A stretch of 61,359 nt of DNA from a virus (Duplodnaviria; Caudoviricetes). Below the pieces are notes generated by a model. That model made no database searches. It was given only the letters and a program-made list of their open reading frames with translations, and was not told where the DNA came from. Below are positions 3,578 through 40,160 of this stretch, piece by piece; positions within the stretch are counted from its first letter, which is position 1, and each line of letters starts with the position of its first letter. The DNA lies in IMG/VR virus record IMGVR_UViG_3300035190_000963, positions 1 to 61,359 of that record; one strand, written 5' to 3'. A program made the position numbers and the translations under genes.

Positions 3578-3641
3578 ATATTATAAATATATGTAAAAAG
3601 AGTAAAAGTTAATAATCGAACTATGTTTTTACTTAAAATTG

Positions 3642-3714
3642 AGCGGATGGCCGAGTATGATTCGGCAACCCCTACCTTGGCAAGGTAGTGCTCTACCAAT
3701 TGAGCTACATCCGC
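3642..3714 (-). tRNA. tRNA-Gly(GCC)
   Basis: CTACC-TTGCCAA-GGTAG; atypical T loop ATCATAC. Confidence 0.88.
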
Positions 3715-3720
3715 AAAAAC

Positions 3721-3800
3721 AAGATGGGTCGTGGACTTGTATACCACTTTTGTCCCCCTTTAATTAAATCACTAACCCTGGGTGTAGGAAAACTCATCTT
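3721..3800 (-). ncRNA. Structured spacer RNA between tRNAs
   Basis: AAGATGAGT/ACCCATCTT terminal stem; GTGG..CCAC inner hairpin. Confidence 0.4.
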
Positions 3801-3803
3801 TAG

Positions 3804-3877
3804 TGGAGAGTTAGGGAATTGAACCCTACTCACGATGATTGCAAATCATTGTCGCCAGCCTTGGTACATGACCCCCC
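3804..3877 (-). tRNA. tRNA-Ala(TGC)
   Basis: ATGA-TTTGCAA-TCAT; G3:U70 identity pair present. Confidence 0.88.
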
Positions 3878-3888
3878 ATTTATTTGTG

Positions 3889-3960
3889 TTGCGGTAAGTG
3901 GGTTCGAACCACTGACCTTGAGATTATGAGACTCACGAGCTACCACCGCTCTATCCCACA
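3889..3960 (-). tRNA. tRNA-Met(CAT), initiator-like
   Basis: TGAGT-CTCATAA-TCTCA; GAGC/GCTC D stem (A11:U24, typical of initiators). Confidence 0.85.
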
Positions 3961-3965
3961 ATTTG

Positions 3966-4038
3966 CGGCTCCAACGGGATTCGAACCCGTACCACGCACC
4001 GTGACAGGGTGGTATTGTGACCATTCAACCATAGAGCC
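3966..4038 (-). tRNA. tRNA-Asp(GTC)
   Basis: CACC-CTGTCAC-GGTG; G73 discriminator. Confidence 0.92.
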
Positions 4039-4060
4039 GTCTTTAATAATACAAATATAC

Positions 4061-4079
4061 AACCAATATGTCAAAGAAC
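4061..4079 (-). promoter_or_regulatory. boxA-like antitermination site (array 1)
   Basis: GTTCTTTGACATATTGGTT, identical to 7703-7721; resembles rrn boxA. Confidence 0.65.
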
Positions 4080-4089
4080 CAAATTTTTT

Positions 4090-4128
4090 AAAACAAAAAA
4101 CCCATCTTTTTTTAGGAGATGGGTTTTT
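4090..4128 (-). terminator. Intrinsic terminator of attenuator 1
   Basis: AAAAACCCATCT-CCTAAAAAA-AGATGGGTTTTTTGTTTT. Confidence 0.85.
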
Positions 4129-4152
4129 ACATTTTATATGTTAATGTCTACT

Positions 4153-4233
4153 TTACATAATACCATTTCCTACCGAGTAGATTAAATCCGATTCAGTCCC
4201 GCCTAAAAGTGTTATTATGTTTAAAGTTTTCAC
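4153..4233 (-). CDS. Putative attenuator leader peptide 1, MKTLNIITLLGGTESDLIYSVGNGIM (26 aa, GTG start)
   Basis: ORF ends about 25 nt before the terminator; its 3' part TAGGAAATGG is complementary (9/10) to the terminator 5' arm and loop CCATCTCCTA. Confidence 0.7.
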   Translation of the reverse strand: MKTLNIITLLGGTESDLIYSVGNGIM

Positions 4234-4324
4234 CTGTTTTAACTATTTTAGAATAAATATATCAAAGTTTTGAAAAGTTTCAAGTCCCTCAGATAATTTT
4301 TTTATTTTATACCTCTGTCGCAAA

Positions 4325-4363
4325 GGGGAAACGGGTCACCAACACCTATATACCCGTCCCCCC
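4325..4363 (-). promoter_or_regulatory. GC-rich hairpin similar to 2234-2274
   Basis: GGGGACGGGT..GTTGGTG-ACCCGT(TT)CCCC; shares GTTGGTGACC with the 2234 hairpin. Confidence 0.45.
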
Positions 4364-4373
4364 AAATACAACT

Positions 4374-4760
4374 TTAATTCATTACATACGCATTACATGC
4401 CCAAGTCTTAGCATTTACCGCTTTATATTGGTCTTGATTGTAAAGATTGGTATTTAAAAATGCACTATTGATATCACCAACCTTTACGTTTTTCAATATC
4501 TCCTCATCAATCAATATGATGTTTTTACCCTTCATGGCGAAAACCGTTAACCAGTTATTTGACCCCTCAGGTTTGAACTCAATGGTTTGAAGAGCTCCTT
4601 TTTTGAATCCGTTGAATACAGACATTACGTCTTTCCAATATTCATTTTCTACATTTGTGTGAAAACCCGCTTTCACTTTTACAATCGCTCTGAAATTACC
4701 AGAACGACCATTGATGAAATTTGCAGTGTGTAATCCCGAGATGTTGATGATGTTTGACAT
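4374..4760 (-). CDS. Hypothetical protein
   Basis: 128-aa ORF. Confidence 0.7.
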   Translation of the reverse strand: MSNIINISGLHTANFINGRSGNFRAIVKVKAGFHTNVENEYWKDVMSVFNGFKKGALQTIEFKPEGSNNWLTVFAMKGKNIILIDEEILKNVKVGDINSAFLNTNLYNQDQYKAVNAKTWACNAYVMN

Positions 4761-4789
4761 AGTTCGTTTGTTTTAGTAGGACAAATATA

Positions 4790-5194
4790 CTACTTTTTTT
4801 TGGATTTCAAAAACTTTTTCCAAATTATTTTTTTGTGTTCACTCGCAACCCGTCTAGCCTCAATCTCAAAAGGATGATTATTATACCCATACTCCTCAAG
4901 TAATGACATGTATTTAGTTCTACAAGGTTGTAAAGAATGAGTGTATTCGTGAACAAATGTTTCAATAAATTTACATATGTCCTTGGTGTTTTTATAATAA
5001 ACCCTTATTTCATTTATACATGGTCTGTATTCACCAAAATTTATAGTATTCTCCTCATCTGTTATTACGATGCTAAGTCCTCTCTTTTTTCTTGAGTTAT
5101 AACCAAAAACATCCATACAGTATTGCAAAGCAAACTTAATGATTTGGAGTCTTTGTCTTCTTGTTAACTTATTGACAGATGAATTTATCCTCAT
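4790..5194 (-). CDS. Putative zincin metallopeptidase
   Basis: HEYTH motif and PFEIEA downstream Glu; TATCTTTG promoter upstream. Confidence 0.6.
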   Translation of the reverse strand: MRINSSVNKLTRRQRLQIIKFALQYCMDVFGYNSRKKRGLSIVITDEENTINFGEYRPCINEIRVYYKNTKDICKFIETFVHEYTHSLQPCRTKYMSLLEEYGYNNHPFEIEARRVASEHKKIIWKKFLKSKKK

Positions 5195-5320
5195 GATGCA
5201 AAGATATATTCTTTTTTTGAATCTGCCAAATTATTGGTGAGAAAAATTTACAAGTCTTAGGAGTCCTATTATTCTCTTCTTTATCCTTCGAGATGGGGAG
5301 GGATGGACTTGTAAAATTAG

Positions 5321-5405
5321 CTGACAGGATGGGACTCGAACCCATGATGGAGTTTTAACTCGTTTGGTTAACAGCCAAATGCTCTCGCCGCTGAGCGACC
5401 TGCCA
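5321..5405 (-). tRNA. tRNA-Asn(GTT) with an extra variable arm
   Basis: TTTGG-CTGTTAA-CCAAA; GAGTT-AA-AACTC extra arm. Confidence 0.88.
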
Positions 5406-9375: not shown

Positions 9376-9383
9376 TATTTTAG

Positions 9384-9456
9384 TAGTCCTATCAAGATTC
9401 GAACTTGAATTTTAGCTTTAGAAGAGCCGCGTGTTAATCCATTACACTATAAGACC
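9384..9456 (-). tRNA. tRNA-Arg(TCT), stand-alone
   Basis: GGCT-CTTCTAA-AGCT; GGTCTTA/TAGGACT acceptor. Confidence 0.88.
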
Positions 9457-28158: not shown

Positions 28159-30018
28159 TTAATTTTTATTAACTTCCTCAAATTCGACATCTGAACCATC
28201 AAAACCCGTATCTGTCGTTGTTTGATTATAAAGGTCTTGACTAATTTTTTGGAACTTCAAGTTAATTTCATCTAGTTTTGTTCGGATAGATTCAATATCC
28301 CTACCACTTATTGATTTTTTTAATTCTTCAATACCATTTACAACCTCACTTTTTTGTTCCTCGGACAATTTATCGTCCAAGTCTTTTAATGATTTTTCCA
28401 TTTGAAATACTGTTGAATCGGCAGTATTGATTAACTCAGCTTCTTCTTTGAATTTCTTATCCGATTCTGCATTCAACTCAGCATCTTTTTTCATTTTTTC
28501 AATATCTTCTTTTGAAAGTCCTGAAGATGACTCAATTCTAATTTCTTGTTTTTTATTAGTCCCTTTATCAAGTGCCGAAACTTGAATAATACCATTTGCA
28601 TCAATATCAAATGTAACTTCAATTTGTGGAATACCTCTCATTGAAGGGGGAATACCATCTAAATGGAATCGACCAATTGTTTTATTGTCTTTTGCCATAC
28701 TTCTTTCTCCTTGGAGAACGTGAATTTCAACTGATGGTTGGTTATCTACTGCGGTAGAGAAAACTTGAGATTTTTTAGTTGGGATTGTGGTATTTGATTC
28801 AATTAATTTTGTAAATACACCACCCATAGTTTCAATTCCTAATGATAAAGGAGTAACATCAAGTAACAATACATCTTTTACATCACCACCCAATACACCA
28901 CCTTGAATCGCGGCACCTAATGCCACAACCTCATCAGGATTTACACCTTTTGAAGGTTCTTTTCCGAAATATTTTTTAACCGCTTCCTGAATTGCGGGAA
29001 TACGTGTTGAACCTCCAACCAAAATAATTTCATCAATTTGGTCAGGATTTAATTTTGCATTTCTTAATGCCGATTTACAAGGTTCAATTGTTCTTTCAAC
29101 CAATTTTTCAATTAATTGTTCAAACTTAGCTTTAGTCAAATTTCTAACCAAATGTTTTGGTACACCATCCACCGGCATTAAATAAGGTAAATTAATCTCA
29201 GTTGATGGAGTTGATGACAATTCAATTTTAGCCTTCTCAGAGGATTCTTTTAATCGTTGTAGCGCCATTGAATCTTTTGACACATCAACGCCATTTTCAT
29301 CTTTAAATTCTTTCACCAACCAATCAATAATCACCTGGTCGAAGTCATCACCACCAAGATGTGTATCACCATCAGTTGATAATACTTCAAATACACCATC
29401 ACCCAATTCTAATACAGATACGTCATGTGTGCCACCACCACAGTCGAACACAACAACAATCATATCTTTATCTTTTTTATCTAACCCATACGCTAATGCC
29501 GCAGCGGTTGGTTCATTAATAATTCGTCTAACATTTAGACCTGCAATTTCACCTGCTTCTTTTGTTGCCTGTCTTTGAGCATCATTAAAATACGCAGGAA
29601 CTGTAATAACCGCATCAGTCACAGTTTCACCTAAATAATCTTCAGCGGTTTGTTTCATTTTTTGTAGTACCGCAGCAGATATCTCCTGTGGTGTAAATGT
29701 TCTACCATCAATATCCACTCTTGGTGTGTCATTATCACCCTTAACTACTTTATAAGGAACTCTACCAACCTCATTGATTGATTCTGAATACTTAGACCCC
29801 ATAAATCGTTTTATGGAATAAACCGTTTTTGTTGGATTCGTGACCGCTTGTCGTTTAGCAGAGTCACCTACTTTTCTTTCACCATCTTTAATGAATCCTA
29901 CGATAGATGGAGTTGTTCTTTTGCCTTCATTATTTGTAATTACAGTAGGTCCACTACTTTCCATAACTGCAACACATGAATTTGTGGTACCTAAATCCAC
30001 GCCTATTATTTTTCCCAT
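28159..30018 (-). CDS. dnaK: Hsp70 chaperone DnaK
   Basis: [40 protein letters not shown]. Confidence 0.97.
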
Positions 30019-31967: not shown

Positions 31968-33593
31968 TTACTTTTTTATGTTTATTTTAATTTTAGTTCC
32001 GACTTCATTTTTTTCACAGGTAATTTTAAACCCATGTTCTTCCAAAATTGCAACACAAATATTCAACCCCAATCCACTACCTGATTCTTTTTGACCTTCT
32101 TTTCTTGTGTAAGGTTTTGATAAATGGTCAAAGTCTTCTTGAGTAATTCCTCTACCATTGTCTTGGATATATATGGATTCTTCATCTGAATATATTTTAA
32201 CAAATTTGGTTTCTGAGTCATTATATTTTAACCCATTTCTGATTAAATTGTCCACTGCGGTGCAGAATAGAGCTTCGTTAACATCAATAGTTGGTAAATC
32301 TTCGATAATCACCTGACTAATATATGCAGTTGATGACAAGTAATCGTTTAAAATAGTTTTTAAATTACATTCTGTTTTATTTAAAACAACGTCTTTCTTA
32401 ACTAAATTAGTAAACTCATACACTCCTTTATAAACTTTTTGAGAATGTTTTAAACCTTCTTTAATCATTTTAAGAGGTGATTCAATCTTTAATGATTCGA
32501 TATCTTCAGGTTTTAATCTACGTTCTAAAGAATTAAGTCCTCTTGGCATGTAAGTATTAATCCCTGAGTGCATATCGTGTCTTAATATTTTGGCGGCATG
32601 TTCTAAATACGTATTTTTCTTTTCAATCTCTTTCTTTTGTTCATAAGAATTGGTGATGTCTGTTGCGATTTTCATAACACGATAAATCTTACCATCAGTA
32701 CCAATAATAGGATTGTAAGTTGCCTGTAAATAAACTAACGACCCATCTTTTTTGACTCTAACAATTTCACCTGAAAACAATACGCCCTCATTTAATTTTT
32801 CCCAAAAAATACGATATTCATCGCTTTTTGAATACTCTTCATCTATAAAAATTCTATGATGTTTTCCAGATATCTTATCTTGTAAAGAATAACCCATAGT
32901 ATTTAAAAACAATTCATTAGCGAAAATAATGTTTCCTTGTAAATCGAACTCAATAACCGCATTAGATTTATTTATGGCGTTCATTCTATTACGAATCTCC
33001 GCTTCTTTTTTCTTTAATTCGGTAACGTCTTGTCTAATTGATGAAAACCCTACCAACTTATTATTTTTATCAAATTTTGCTTTAATGTATGTATCAACAT
33101 AATACAATTCACCTGATTTTGTTTTATTGGTAACAACATCATTCCATATTTCACCGTTCATTACCGTCTTATACATCTTACCCCAATAACCGTCAGGTTG
33201 TAATCCCGAATTAACGATAATATGGTCCTTACCTATTACTTCATCTAATGACCATCCAGAAACTTCCTCAAATTTTTTATTAACATACGTTATTTTACCG
33301 TTTTTATCTGCAACTGAAACAATTGCTGCAGTATCAATAAACTCCTCACTCTCTTTTATTGTTTTTAATAAATCACTTTTTAGTTCAGCGGTTTGTGATT
33401 TCATTAAAAAATAAAATATTGGTATAAATAAAACTATACAAAGGTATTCAACAATACGAGTTAATTGAGTTGGTTCAAACATTCCAATTAATATTGCGGT
33501 TTTAAGGATAAAAAAAACCGACATAATGATGATTGAAAAAAGTAAATAGTGTTTTGATTCTTTATTCATATTCATAAATACTTCTTTATTCAT
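31968..33593 (-). CDS. Membrane sensor histidine kinase with two PAS/PAC domains
   Basis: Two N-terminal TMs; PAS motifs; RHDMHS H-box, NLIRNGLKY, DNGRGI, GSGLGL. Confidence 0.92.
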   Translation of the reverse strand: MNKEVFMNMNKESKHYLLFSIIIMSVFFILKTAILIGMFEPTQLTRIVEYLCIVLFIPIFYFLMKSQTAELKSDLLKTIKESEEFIDTAAIVSVADKNGKITYVNKKFEEVSGWSLDEVIGKDHIIVNSGLQPDGYWGKMYKTVMNGEIWNDVVTNKTKSGELYYVDTYIKAKFDKNNKLVGFSSIRQDVTELKKKEAEIRNRMNAINKSNAVIEFDLQGNIIFANELFLNTMGYSLQDKISGKHHRIFIDEEYSKSDEYRIFWEKLNEGVLFSGEIVRVKKDGSLVYLQATYNPIIGTDGKIYRVMKIATDITNSYEQKKEIEKKNTYLEHAAKILRHDMHSGINTYMPRGLNSLERRLKPEDIESLKIESPLKMIKEGLKHSQKVYKGVYEFTNLVKKDVVLNKTECNLKTILNDYLSSTAYISQVIIEDLPTIDVNEALFCTAVDNLIRNGLKYNDSETKFVKIYSDEESIYIQDNGRGITQEDFDHLSKPYTRKEGQKESGSGLGLNICVAILEEHGFKITCEKNEVGTKIKINIKK

Positions 33594-39065: not shown

Positions 39066-40160
39066 TTAATTTGATAAGGGGAATTTTATACTAGGGTGTG
39101 ATTTATAATCTTTAATTTGAAAATCTACAATATCTAAATGAGATAACAGAGACAAATTTTCAGATAATGATTTATAAAAATCATCTGTCTTCATGTGAAT
39201 TAATTTAGGTAGTTCGTATGGTTTTCTTGTTAATTGTTCTTTAATACCATCAATCTGGTTTAAGTAGATATGACAATCACCCATATTAGTAATCAATTCA
39301 TCAGGAGCCATGTTAACCATCTTTGCGATTATATCTAATAGTAAAGCATAAGACGCTATATTAAATGGTGTTCCCAACGGAACATCTTGACTTCTGGCAT
39401 TATACATTAAAGAGATTGCTCTGGTTGGGATGTTATATTCTTTGTAGTACTCTTCTATTTGTTCTTTATTAGTGGAACCTTTTATTGTTGGTGTTTTTAA
39501 TCGGTTACTAGTAGTAACATATAATTCCCATCTTTCTTGTTCACTCAACTCTCTTGTATACACTTGAAATCCATAATGACAAGGCGGTAAAACGCAACTA
39601 TCAACTTCTGATGGGTTCCAAGCTGTGACAATCATTCTCCTATCATCAGGATTGGTTTTTAACTTGTTAATTAGGTTTGCAATTTGGTCTGTCCCAATAA
39701 AGTACTCGTTATCGATTGAATCGTACCTTCTTTCACCCCACTTGCGCCATTGATGTCCATATATCTTTCCGAGTGCCCCCCATTTCTTAGCAAACTCATC
39801 ATCTGTTTTTATACGGTTAATGAATTCTTCTTTTGATAGTGGTATTGGCGCACCGCCTGGAGAGTAAGATTTCCACCATTTTTCATAGTTCTTATAAGCG
39901 TCCCCATCCCAAATATGACAACCATTATCAACAAGGAATTTAATATTTGTATCACCACGAAGGAACCAAAGTAACTCAGTTACCATTGTTTTAAACGCCA
40001 TTTTTTTGGTGGTAAGAAGTGGAAAGCCATCTTTCATAGAATGTCTTATTTGTCTACCGAATACAGATATGGTACCACCATTTCTTGTTTCTTTTTTAGT
40101 ACCCTTATCAAGAATGTCTTGACATAGTGCTAAATAATCTTTATCGAGTTTGTTAGTCAT
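39066..40160 (-). CDS. thyA: Thymidylate synthase
   Basis: FPLLTTKK, ELLWF, LPPCH, RSQD..LGTPFNIASY, GDCHIY. Confidence 0.96.
   Translation of the reverse strand: MTNKLDKDYLALCQDILDKGTKKETRNGGTISVFGRQIRHSMKDGFPLLTTKKMAFKTMVTELLWFLRGDTNIKFLVDNGCHIWDGDAYKNYEKWWKSYSPGGAPIPLSKEEFINRIKTDDEFAKKWGALGKIYGHQWRKWGERRYDSIDNEYFIGTDQIANLINKLKTNPDDRRMIVTAWNPSEVDSCVLPPCHYGFQVYTRELSEQERWELYVTTSNRLKTPTIKGSTNKEQIEEYYKEYNIPTRAISLMYNARSQDVPLGTPFNIASYALLLDIIAKMVNMAPDELITNMGDCHIYLNQIDGIKEQLTRKPYELPKLIHMKTDDFYKSLSENLSLLSHLDIVDFQIKDYKSHPSIKFPLSN

Follow-up and report, generated by a model that had tools for sequence, protein, structure and literature searches.

A candidate leader-peptide attenuator preceding a transfer RNA gene array in a huge phage with a probable Bacteroidota host

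The IMG/VR virus record IMGVR_UViG_3300035190_000963 (Duplodnaviria; Caudoviricetes) provides the DNA examined in this study, and its entire length of 61,359 bases is hereafter called the window. The record is complete at this length and carries a completeness rating of 21%, which indicates that the window is a fragment end of a phage of approximately 290 kb. Near-identical DNA is present in lake-water metagenomes, and the sequencing runs listed with this DNA include none of RNA. There are 24 transfer RNA (tRNA) genes in the window, arranged in two arrays, and each array is preceded by a compact region that includes a short open reading frame (ORF), an intrinsic terminator and an element resembling the boxA sequence of ribosomal RNA (rRNA) operons. 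We focus on the region before the first array, which extends on the minus strand from position 4283 to position 4061 (module 1). An earlier examination of the letters alone (the sequence-only reading) had proposed that this region is an attenuator with a leader peptide rich in codons for the tRNAs encoded downstream.

All features of module 1 lie on the minus strand and are described here in the order in which they would be transcribed. A promoter-like site at 4283-4254, from which the leader transcript would originate, consists of TTG (4283-4281), a 19-base spacer and an 8-base −7 type motif (4261-4254), whose consensus we take to be that of the Bacteroidota promoter literature; the same site also scores as sigma-70-like, with an extended −10 element. 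Upstream of it lies the end of an ORF of 128 amino acids, which has a hairpin of its own. The leader ORF begins with GTG and comprises 26 codons plus a stop (4233-4153), exactly as it had first been written down. We propose that codons 2-17 form the sensor part of this ORF and that the last nine or so codons provide the strand that competes with the terminator. Two segments of the leader RNA are relevant to this proposal. Segment 1 (4227-4205), recognized in the minimum-energy fold and in an alignment of eight sequences, is the 5′ strand of a hairpin within the leader. Segment 2 (4172-4150) pairs with segment 1 through 4161-4150, and its other portion, 4172-4163, can pair with the 5′ arm of the terminator to form an antiterminator.

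The terminator expected after the leader ORF was located at 4128-4096 (arms 4123-4117 and 4107-4101; T-run 4100-4095), and an A-run upstream of the hairpin makes it terminator-like on the other strand as well. It is followed by the 19-base boxA-like element (4079-4061), with which a second promoter-like site overlaps (4082-4052; TTG at 4082-4080, a 20-base spacer and a perfect −7 type motif at 4059-4052). This second site reaches 11 of 12 in a sigma-70 scan and would start RNA a few bases before tRNA-Asp, which begins at 4038. From there, array 1 continues on the minus strand to base 1 with genes for tRNA-Asp(GTC), Met(CAT), Ala(TGC) and Gly(GCC), an HNH-like ORF, Gly(TCC), an ORF of 107 amino acids, an odd tRNA, Leu(TAA), Met(CAT), Leu(TAG) and a cut Phe-like tRNA. 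Every tRNA listed as downstream by the sequence-only reading is thus among them.

The second array is preceded by a paralogous attenuator candidate, module 2 (7945-7703, minus strand), which aligns with module 1 at 76% column identity. Its promoter-like site has TTG at 7945-7943, a 20-base spacer and a −7 motif at 7922-7915, and is followed by a leader of 32 codons (7890-7792), an antiterminator strand (7811-7802) that pairs with the terminator 5′ arm, a terminator (7763-7728) with the same fold as that of module 1 and an unlike stem sequence, and a boxA-like 19-mer (7721-7703). Array 2 (7687-5320, minus strand) then encodes tRNAs for Gln, Met, Val, Phe, His, Tyr, Ser, Arg, Pro, Ile, Lys and Cys, followed by an ORF and tRNAs for Trp and Asn. 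When the module 2 RNA is cut before the 3′ arm of the terminator, its predicted fold shows the antiterminator directly, and no promoter motif is present between the terminator and tRNA-Gln. Module 2 is the cleaner of the two attenuators in the window.

To place these regions among related viruses, loci were gathered with the first 17 bases of the boxA-like element as an exact bait, such that other designs fall outside the sample, and the fetched loci were searched for a short ORF followed by a terminator and then by a tRNA within 200 nucleotides (nt). The search yielded 56 modules with 43 distinct leader peptides in related viral contigs. All 17 viral loci with a terminator no more than 80 nt before the 17-mer contain an ATG-initiated ORF of 22-37 codons, whose end lies 44-57 nt before the T-run. 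A count from the list of modules gives a Met-Lys start for 30 of the 43 distinct leaders. Upstream of the start codon, at a distance of 5-70 nt, 35 of the 43 modules have a −7 type motif, compared with 13% of control windows, and an A at −3 is found in 26. Between the terminator and the first tRNA, 29 of the 43 modules carry no promoter motif, which supports the view that most arrays have no route of transcription other than the leader promoter.

Five of the gathered records, G001 to G005 (loci L119, L123, L122, L121 and L120, respectively), have two modules each, and one of the five is a complete genome of 257 kb. The same module architecture is carried by an uncultured GenBank phage of 735 kb. 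This phage was reached through blastn searches of modules 1 and 2 against GenBank phages, which returned two short matches for each module; a match in Cellulophaga lies inside a protein gene. A megablast search of GenBank phages with positions 3600-5400 of the window returned no matches, and neither this search nor those with blastn yielded a cultured relative. No match to an Rfam leader or T-box family at the gathering score was obtained in the window, and at E ≤ 1 the interval 4030-4350 produced only sub-threshold matches to terminator-like hairpins. No PHROG family matches the leader ORF, and PHROG and Pfam searches with this leader and with the neighbouring ORFs of 128 and 134 amino acids revealed nothing useful.

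The homologues of leader 1 retain the ORF, the terminator and the boxA element. Together with the window they form a family alignment of eight sequences, in which both the leader ORF and the antiterminator are conserved, as the sequence-only reading had suggested should be checked. The peptide itself is not conserved between leader types. Moreover, within the leader 1 family the 3′ part of the ORF is kept as nucleotides, yet the window and the relative L092 have it in a different reading frame, and therefore selection appears to act on the RNA and on an open frame, and not on the peptide.

A first line of evidence is that the content of these leaders follows that of the array downstream. For leader 2, 30 of 31 counted residues, given as a fraction of 0.94, are among the 14 amino acids that array 2 serves, and none of these 14 is missing from the leader; no window among 20,000 random ones from long phage ORFs reaches both figures. 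Among the 17 amino acids that have a tRNA in only one array of the window, 14 are commoner in the cognate leader, two are tied and one shows the reverse, in agreement with the earlier remark that the codon sets of the two leaders are largely complementary. When six two-module genomes are combined, the cognate leader contains more of a single-array amino acid in 73 instances, the same number in 11 and fewer in 11, and under strict wobble rules the leader's own array alone can read 189 codons, the other array alone 74, both arrays six and neither array 76; because the sequences are related, sign and Fisher tests on such counts overstate independence, and arrays are cut by the ends of loci.

Permutation provides a more demanding comparison. 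In 37 distinct modules, 775 residues belong to the set of amino acids served by the array downstream where 653 are expected (z = 8.3), and the leaders include 389 of the 425 amino-acid types of their arrays. The corresponding values for 18 representatives with less than 50% identity are 401 residues against 340 expected and 199 of 216 types. When arrays were permuted among modules, the observed values were reached in none of 5000 trials for either set. The match is also concentrated where a sensor would be expected, in that the in-set fraction of 30 modules with 5-15 array amino-acid types falls from 0.71 in the leader body to 0.52 over the last nine codons.

Changes in the composition of arrays are likewise mirrored. 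The division of the 20 amino acids between the two arrays differs among records G001 to G005, and tRNA genes have evidently moved between arrays in these phages. In G001, G003 and G004, the tRNAs for Thr and Leu(TAG) are encoded in array 2, and both amino acids occur in leader 2. In G002, Asp and Glu are grouped with Ile, Phe, Lys and Trp, and the matching leader has four Asp and two Glu codons; Asn, Pro, Tyr and Gln are grouped with Leu, Gly and Thr, and the matching leader has seven Asn codons. For relatives of leader 1, the array includes tRNAs for Glu, Thr, Ile(TAT) and Phe, and the leader has codons to match. The 735-kb phage has an array of the order Trp-His-His-Phe-Lys-Ser, and 16 of its 30 leader residues are Ser, Lys, His, Phe or Trp, although the match here is at the level of amino acids and not always at that of codons. 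We consider the permutation of distant representatives and the changed partitions to be stronger evidence than the simple p-values.

With respect to leader 1 itself, direct reading upholds the statement that 13 of the 16 codons from 2 to 17 specify Thr, Leu, Ile(ATA), Gly, Glu or Asp. At the nucleotide level, the leader keeps a conserved stretch of two non-identical Leu codons and two non-identical Gly codons, followed by codons for Thr and Glu. If tRNAs for Thr and Glu are assumed to belong to the array, 11 of the 16 residues at codons 2-17 match (p = 0.02). The sequence-only reading had cautioned that no Ala codon is present even though the array includes tRNA-Ala. This caveat holds for the leader of the window and not for a variant strain: three of four lake metagenome runs contain substitutions inside leader 1 at 4181 and 4191, which replace Ser by Ala at codon 15 and Ile by Ser at codon 18, and relatives also have Ala at codon 15.

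Thr and Glu are the only amino acids for which the window has no tRNA, and a tRNA for each had been predicted to lie just beyond its left end, where the record stops at base 1. The closest homologue of leader 1, in G005, precedes an array that includes Glu(TTC) and ends with Leu(TAA), Ile(TAT), Leu(TAG), Phe and Thr(TGT). The array in the window ends with Leu(TAA), Met(CAT), Leu(TAG) and a cut tRNA (1-68) that is most like the Phe gene of G005. Because of this synteny, a Thr gene is likely to be located just beyond the left end. The tRNA for Glu may be encoded beyond the end or may be missing, and here we are less certain because its syntenic slot lies inside the window and holds no recognizable Glu gene. 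Contigs from two lake metagenome runs extend 231 and 371 nt past the left end. Two Ile(ATA) codons in the leader had been matched to an Ile2-type tRNA with the anticodon CAT. The CAT tRNA at 240-166 is closest to a Met(CAT) gene of G005, and the Ile(TAT) gene that occupies the syntenic position there resembles it less; an Ile2 identity is at most tentative.

A second line of evidence concerns the RNA structures that would operate the switch. Among the 43 modules, complementarity between the ORF and the 5′ arm of the terminator has a mean z of −2.26 relative to shuffled sequences, with p ≤ 0.05 in 25 of the 43, and the pairing strand is found mostly within the last 30 nt of the ORF. In the leader 1 family, the antiterminator helix formed by 4170-4163 and 4122-4115 is 95.3% paired and three of its pairs have changed on both sides, a result reached by one of 500 shuffles; control helices obtained by sliding the strands are 44-67% paired. 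The terminator stem of the same eight sequences is 93.8% paired, again with three pairs changed on both sides. A third helix has a core formed by 4219-4214 and 4161-4156, where 81% of cells are paired and two positions have changed on both sides. This helix joins codons 5-8 with the end of the ORF and is part of the window leader's minimum-energy fold; by analogy, it would be the 1:2 pairing of the classical attenuation model. The somewhat longer antiterminator pairing proposed at the outset (4172-4163 with 4122-4113) can form nine of its 10 pairs; the helix shows compensatory changes in the family, whereas in this copy alone the pairing is no better than chance.

The identification of the 19-mer as boxA, also put forward by the sequence-only reading, is upheld by its distribution. 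The element at 4079-4061 is repeated letter for letter at 7721-7703, and two matches occurred in none of 100 shuffles. Its first 17 bases are found in more than 115 viral stretches, where they mostly stand 8-20 nt ahead of a tRNA, separate two tRNAs or follow Bacteroidota-type promoter motifs. The exact 17-mer (4079-4063) also occurs in at least 120 bacterial stretches, almost all of which are from Bacteroidota. In Pedobacter africanus and Flavihumibacter petaseus, it is located between tRNA-Ala and the 23S rRNA gene, within the 16S-23S spacer. The spacer between tRNA and 23S rRNA genes is the classical place of the spacer boxA. Among 122 bacterial matches, a tRNA lies within 200 nt upstream in 70 and downstream in none. 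No leader module was found in the 120 bacterial loci that hold the 17-mer; three ORF matches sit just before Ile-Ala tRNAs, a position that we infer to be inside the 3′ region of the 16S rRNA gene.

We also considered whether the 19-mer might serve as the −35 box of a sigma-70 promoter at 4074-4046. This assignment is ruled out by the copies that occur between tRNAs, downstream of promoters and in rRNA spacers, while a Bacteroidota-type promoter motif overlapping the 19-mer is possible. Because the 17-mer is identical to the Bacteroidota rRNA-spacer element, the host of the phage is very probably a member of this phylum, and the hosts of such phages are probably freshwater Bacteroidota. In this phylum, mRNAs are reported to lack Shine-Dalgarno sequences, and an A at −3 to favour initiation (PMC6847099). 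The missing ribosome-binding site before the leaders is therefore no argument against their translation.

Considering the retention of the ORF, terminator and boxA among homologues, the compensatory changes in the antiterminator, and a leader content that follows the array, the proposal of the sequence-only reading is supported, and we judge it probable that the region from 4283 to 4061 is one of two ribosome-mediated transcription attenuators positioned before the tRNA arrays of a huge Bacteroidota phage. At the level of the family, and as far as sequence can tell, all of the defining features of a leader-peptide attenuator are present. In the mechanism that we envisage, RNA would start near 4250 at the promoter-like site and the 26-codon leader would be translated at once, with the codons for amino acids of the downstream tRNAs occupying its first two thirds. 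If these codons are decoded rapidly, the ribosome would arrive at the end of the ORF and cover segment 2 (4172-4150), whereupon the terminator (4123-4101) would form and the RNA would end at 4095. If a charged tRNA is scarce, the ribosome would stall earlier, the free segment 2 would pair with the 5′ arm of the terminator, and polymerase would continue. The boxA element (4079-4061) would be transcribed next and, judging from its position only, presumably loads host Nus antitermination factors that would promote read-through of the long, untranslated and ORF-interrupted array. If the leader is not translated at all, segment 1 would pair with segment 2 and termination would occur by default. The net outcome would be a feedback in which slow decoding of the leader's codons causes the tRNA genes to be transcribed.

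We favour, with somewhat less assurance, the broader view that huge phages of Bacteroidota use such modules as a multiplexed gauge of tRNA demand, in which an array is transcribed only when the amino acids that it encodes tRNAs for are decoded slowly. Slow decoding could follow the depletion of host tRNAs through host shut-off or anticodon nucleases.

Several observations weigh against these proposals, and most of them concern module 1. Its start codon is GTG with a C at −3, whereas all seven aligned homologues have ATG; because of this start, the C at −3 and the lack of Shine-Dalgarno help in Bacteroidota, initiation at leader 1 may be poor. The 2:3 pairing of this copy has an RNAduplex energy of −9.0 kcal/mol compared with −8.6 kcal/mol for 200 shuffles (p = 0.33), contains one A-C mismatch, and is not the minimum-energy fold when the transcript is cut before the 3′ arm. 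When leader 1 is compared with the visible array, 10 of 25 residues match, which is not significant (p = 0.09), and for nine of the 25 codons the only tRNAs able to read them belong to the other array. No gene for tRNA-Glu or tRNA-Thr was found in 1-2800 by ARAGORN with introns allowed. The caution that internal promoters exist is also justified. The perfect promoter motif at 4082-4052 stands between the terminator and tRNA-Asp, and a further motif at about 2325-2289 lies within array 1, and therefore much of the array is possibly independent of read-through. Beyond module 1, promoter motifs follow the terminator in 14 of the 43 modules, and the Ser codons in the leader of the 735-kb phage are not those read by its Ser(CGA) tRNA under strict wobble. 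To these points must be added the relatedness of the sequences and the truncation of arrays mentioned above.

Many of the same observations would be expected if the family is real and module 1 is a decaying or vestigial member of it, such that the promoter at 4082-4052 and the internal promoters drive the tRNA genes, the leader has lost any measurable regulatory effect, and the hairpin only stops transcripts arriving from upstream. The start codon context, the chance-level antiterminator that is absent from the truncated fold, and the promoter motifs after the terminator and further down all agree with this explanation, as does a terminator of −10.7 kcal/mol, which is weaker than that of most modules (typically −13 to −15 kcal/mol). 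However, the ORF is still open across its 26 codons, the Leu-Leu-Gly-Gly-Thr-Glu codon run is kept at the nucleotide level, and the 1:2 helix is kept with compensatory changes relative to the homologues. Only the two substitutions described above distinguish the copies in several lake metagenomes, and one of them creates the missing Ala codon. Furthermore, the relatives L092 and L115 have a strong internal promoter and yet retain intact leaders. On balance, we regard vestigial status as unlikely. We instead view module 1 as a weak member of an attenuator family that may be only partly functional, and its output probably adds to that of a constitutive promoter just before tRNA-Asp.

The promoter, ORF and terminator could also constitute a separate small gene, for a micro-protein or a small RNA, that resides beside the arrays and has no part in their transcription. 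Such a gene would account for the unit having its own promoter-like site and its own terminator, and for the 14 arrays that have a promoter motif after the terminator. It would not account for a peptide that is unconserved between leader types and whose 3′ part is in different frames in close relatives, for a composition that tracks the downstream tRNAs, or for the covariation of the ORF 3′ end with the terminator arm; in addition, no Rfam or PHROG family is matched. We therefore hold a separate gene to be highly improbable. The notion that the ORF arose by chance, as an open frame in the gap that separates the upstream gene's terminator from the tRNA array promoter, merits almost no credence, because, although module 1 taken alone is statistically weak and AT-rich DNA offers many promoter-like matches (51 found against 44 expected), such an ORF occurs at a fixed distance in 17 of 17 terminator-bearing loci, begins with Met-Lys in 30 of 43 leaders, and belongs to a pattern that 5000 permutations never reproduced.

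Other features of the arrays and their surroundings are as follows. The HNH-like ORF of array 1 (272 amino acids; 3577-2759, minus strand) is located between tRNA-Gly(GCC) and tRNA-Gly(TCC) and has weak PHROG matches to HNH-endonuclease and D5-like families. The odd tRNA (893-822, minus strand) is assigned a 2-base anticodon by ARAGORN and scores 51.5 bits with the Rfam tRNA model, and the cut Phe-like tRNA (68-1, minus strand) has an anticodon loop of eight or six bases by direct reading. Relatives (L119, L121 and L244) contain tRNA genes with 4-base anticodons. The tRNAs with abnormal anticodon loops could be frameshift-suppressor-like, decoys or decayed genes.

Array 1 has an internal promoter-like site, at about 2325-2205 on the minus strand, in which a 20-base spacer separates TTG from a −7 motif; a GC-rich hairpin that lacks a T-run and a boxA-like variant come after it. 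A second boxA-like variant, at about 1215-1195 on the same strand, lies directly before a tRNA-like sequence. At about 1616-1471 and 1190-1010, again on the minus strand, 5′ halves resembling class II tRNAs are separated by roughly 65-150 nt from 3′ halves that resemble T arms, and similar arrangements follow boxA in L118 and L063. These split genes look as if they carry insertions, and ARAGORN with introns allowed reports one Arg gene with a 64-nt intron; no group I intron was detected in them by Rfam. A search of 330-2710 with Rfam at E ≤ 0.1 recovered only the odd tRNA and one weak tRNA match. Metagenome depth peaks sharply at 1471-1617. A lone tRNA-Arg(TCT) gene (9383-9456, minus strand) is located upstream of module 2 and outside both arrays, and in G004 and G005 this gene lies within array 2.

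Elsewhere in the window are genes for a full-length DnaK/Hsp70 protein (28159-30018), a protein with PAS and histidine-kinase ATPase domains (31968-33593), a thymidylate synthase (39066-40160) that is approximately 100 residues longer than the Pfam profile, and glycosyltransferases. Relatives of the 128-amino-acid ORF were found on a single 5-kb contig without tRNAs.

If the proposed mechanism is correct, it would have several implications. To our knowledge, the regulation of phage-carried tRNAs is largely unexplored, and the debate concerns why phages carry tRNAs at all. A leader that mirrors its array suggests that the supply of tRNAs is matched to decoding demand by a simple feedback, and codon swaps should re-address the sensor. 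The differing partitions of tRNA genes among relatives offer a natural experiment for dating the adaptation of leaders to the movement of tRNA genes. The rule that links leader to array could also aid the annotation of tRNA arrays, given that a leader predicts the tRNAs that follow, which here include Thr and Glu beyond the end of the contig. In full-text searches of openly accessible literature, including a search aimed at boxA, we found no description of control of phage tRNA arrays by leader peptides or attenuators. As far as the literature searched shows, these modules would thus be the first instance of attenuation control of tRNA genes, and the first leaders to sense up to 14 amino acids at once.

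Tandem tRNA genes in phages are familiar from T4, T5 and the huge phages, which carry tRNA clusters with small ORFs and homing-endonuclease genes, and the arrays of the window are alike in consisting of many tRNA genes broken by small ORFs. Among known regulators, T-box riboswitches likewise sense specific tRNAs and choose between terminator and antiterminator structures before genes of the translation apparatus. T-boxes bind uncharged tRNA directly and involve no ORF, whereas the phage module has one, and no Rfam T-box match is present in the window. The boxA of rRNA operons, where antitermination depends on NusB/NusE, shares a 17-base identity with the phage element at 4079-4063. In contrast to the rRNA arrangement, the phage copy precedes tRNA genes directly after an attenuator, and in relatives it is also found between tRNA genes, such that phages appear to borrow the host rRNA boxA for their tRNA arrays.

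The closest functional parallel is with the leader-peptide attenuators of the amino-acid operons trp, his, leu, thr and ilv and of pheA, and with that of pheST in Proteobacteria. Classical attenuators and the phage modules have in common a promoter, a short leader with cognate codons, three overlapping helices (1:2, 2:3 and 3:4) and a terminator, and in the former, as is proposed for the latter, read-through occurs when the ribosome stalls. The phage modules differ in that they would control tRNAs, and not enzymes or a synthetase, and in that the leader samples up to 14 amino-acid types once or a few times each, and not a run of one. They are also phage-borne, reside in a Bacteroidota setting without Shine-Dalgarno sequences, are followed by an rRNA-type boxA, and have no sequence relation to the classical examples. 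The novelty lies in the class of gene regulated, in a leader that spans many amino acids, in the phage and its Bacteroidota background, and in the link to boxA. Classical attenuation would thereby be extended to a new gene class, to a phylum without Shine-Dalgarno sequences, to viruses, and to a combinatorial form in which many amino acids are each represented by one codon.

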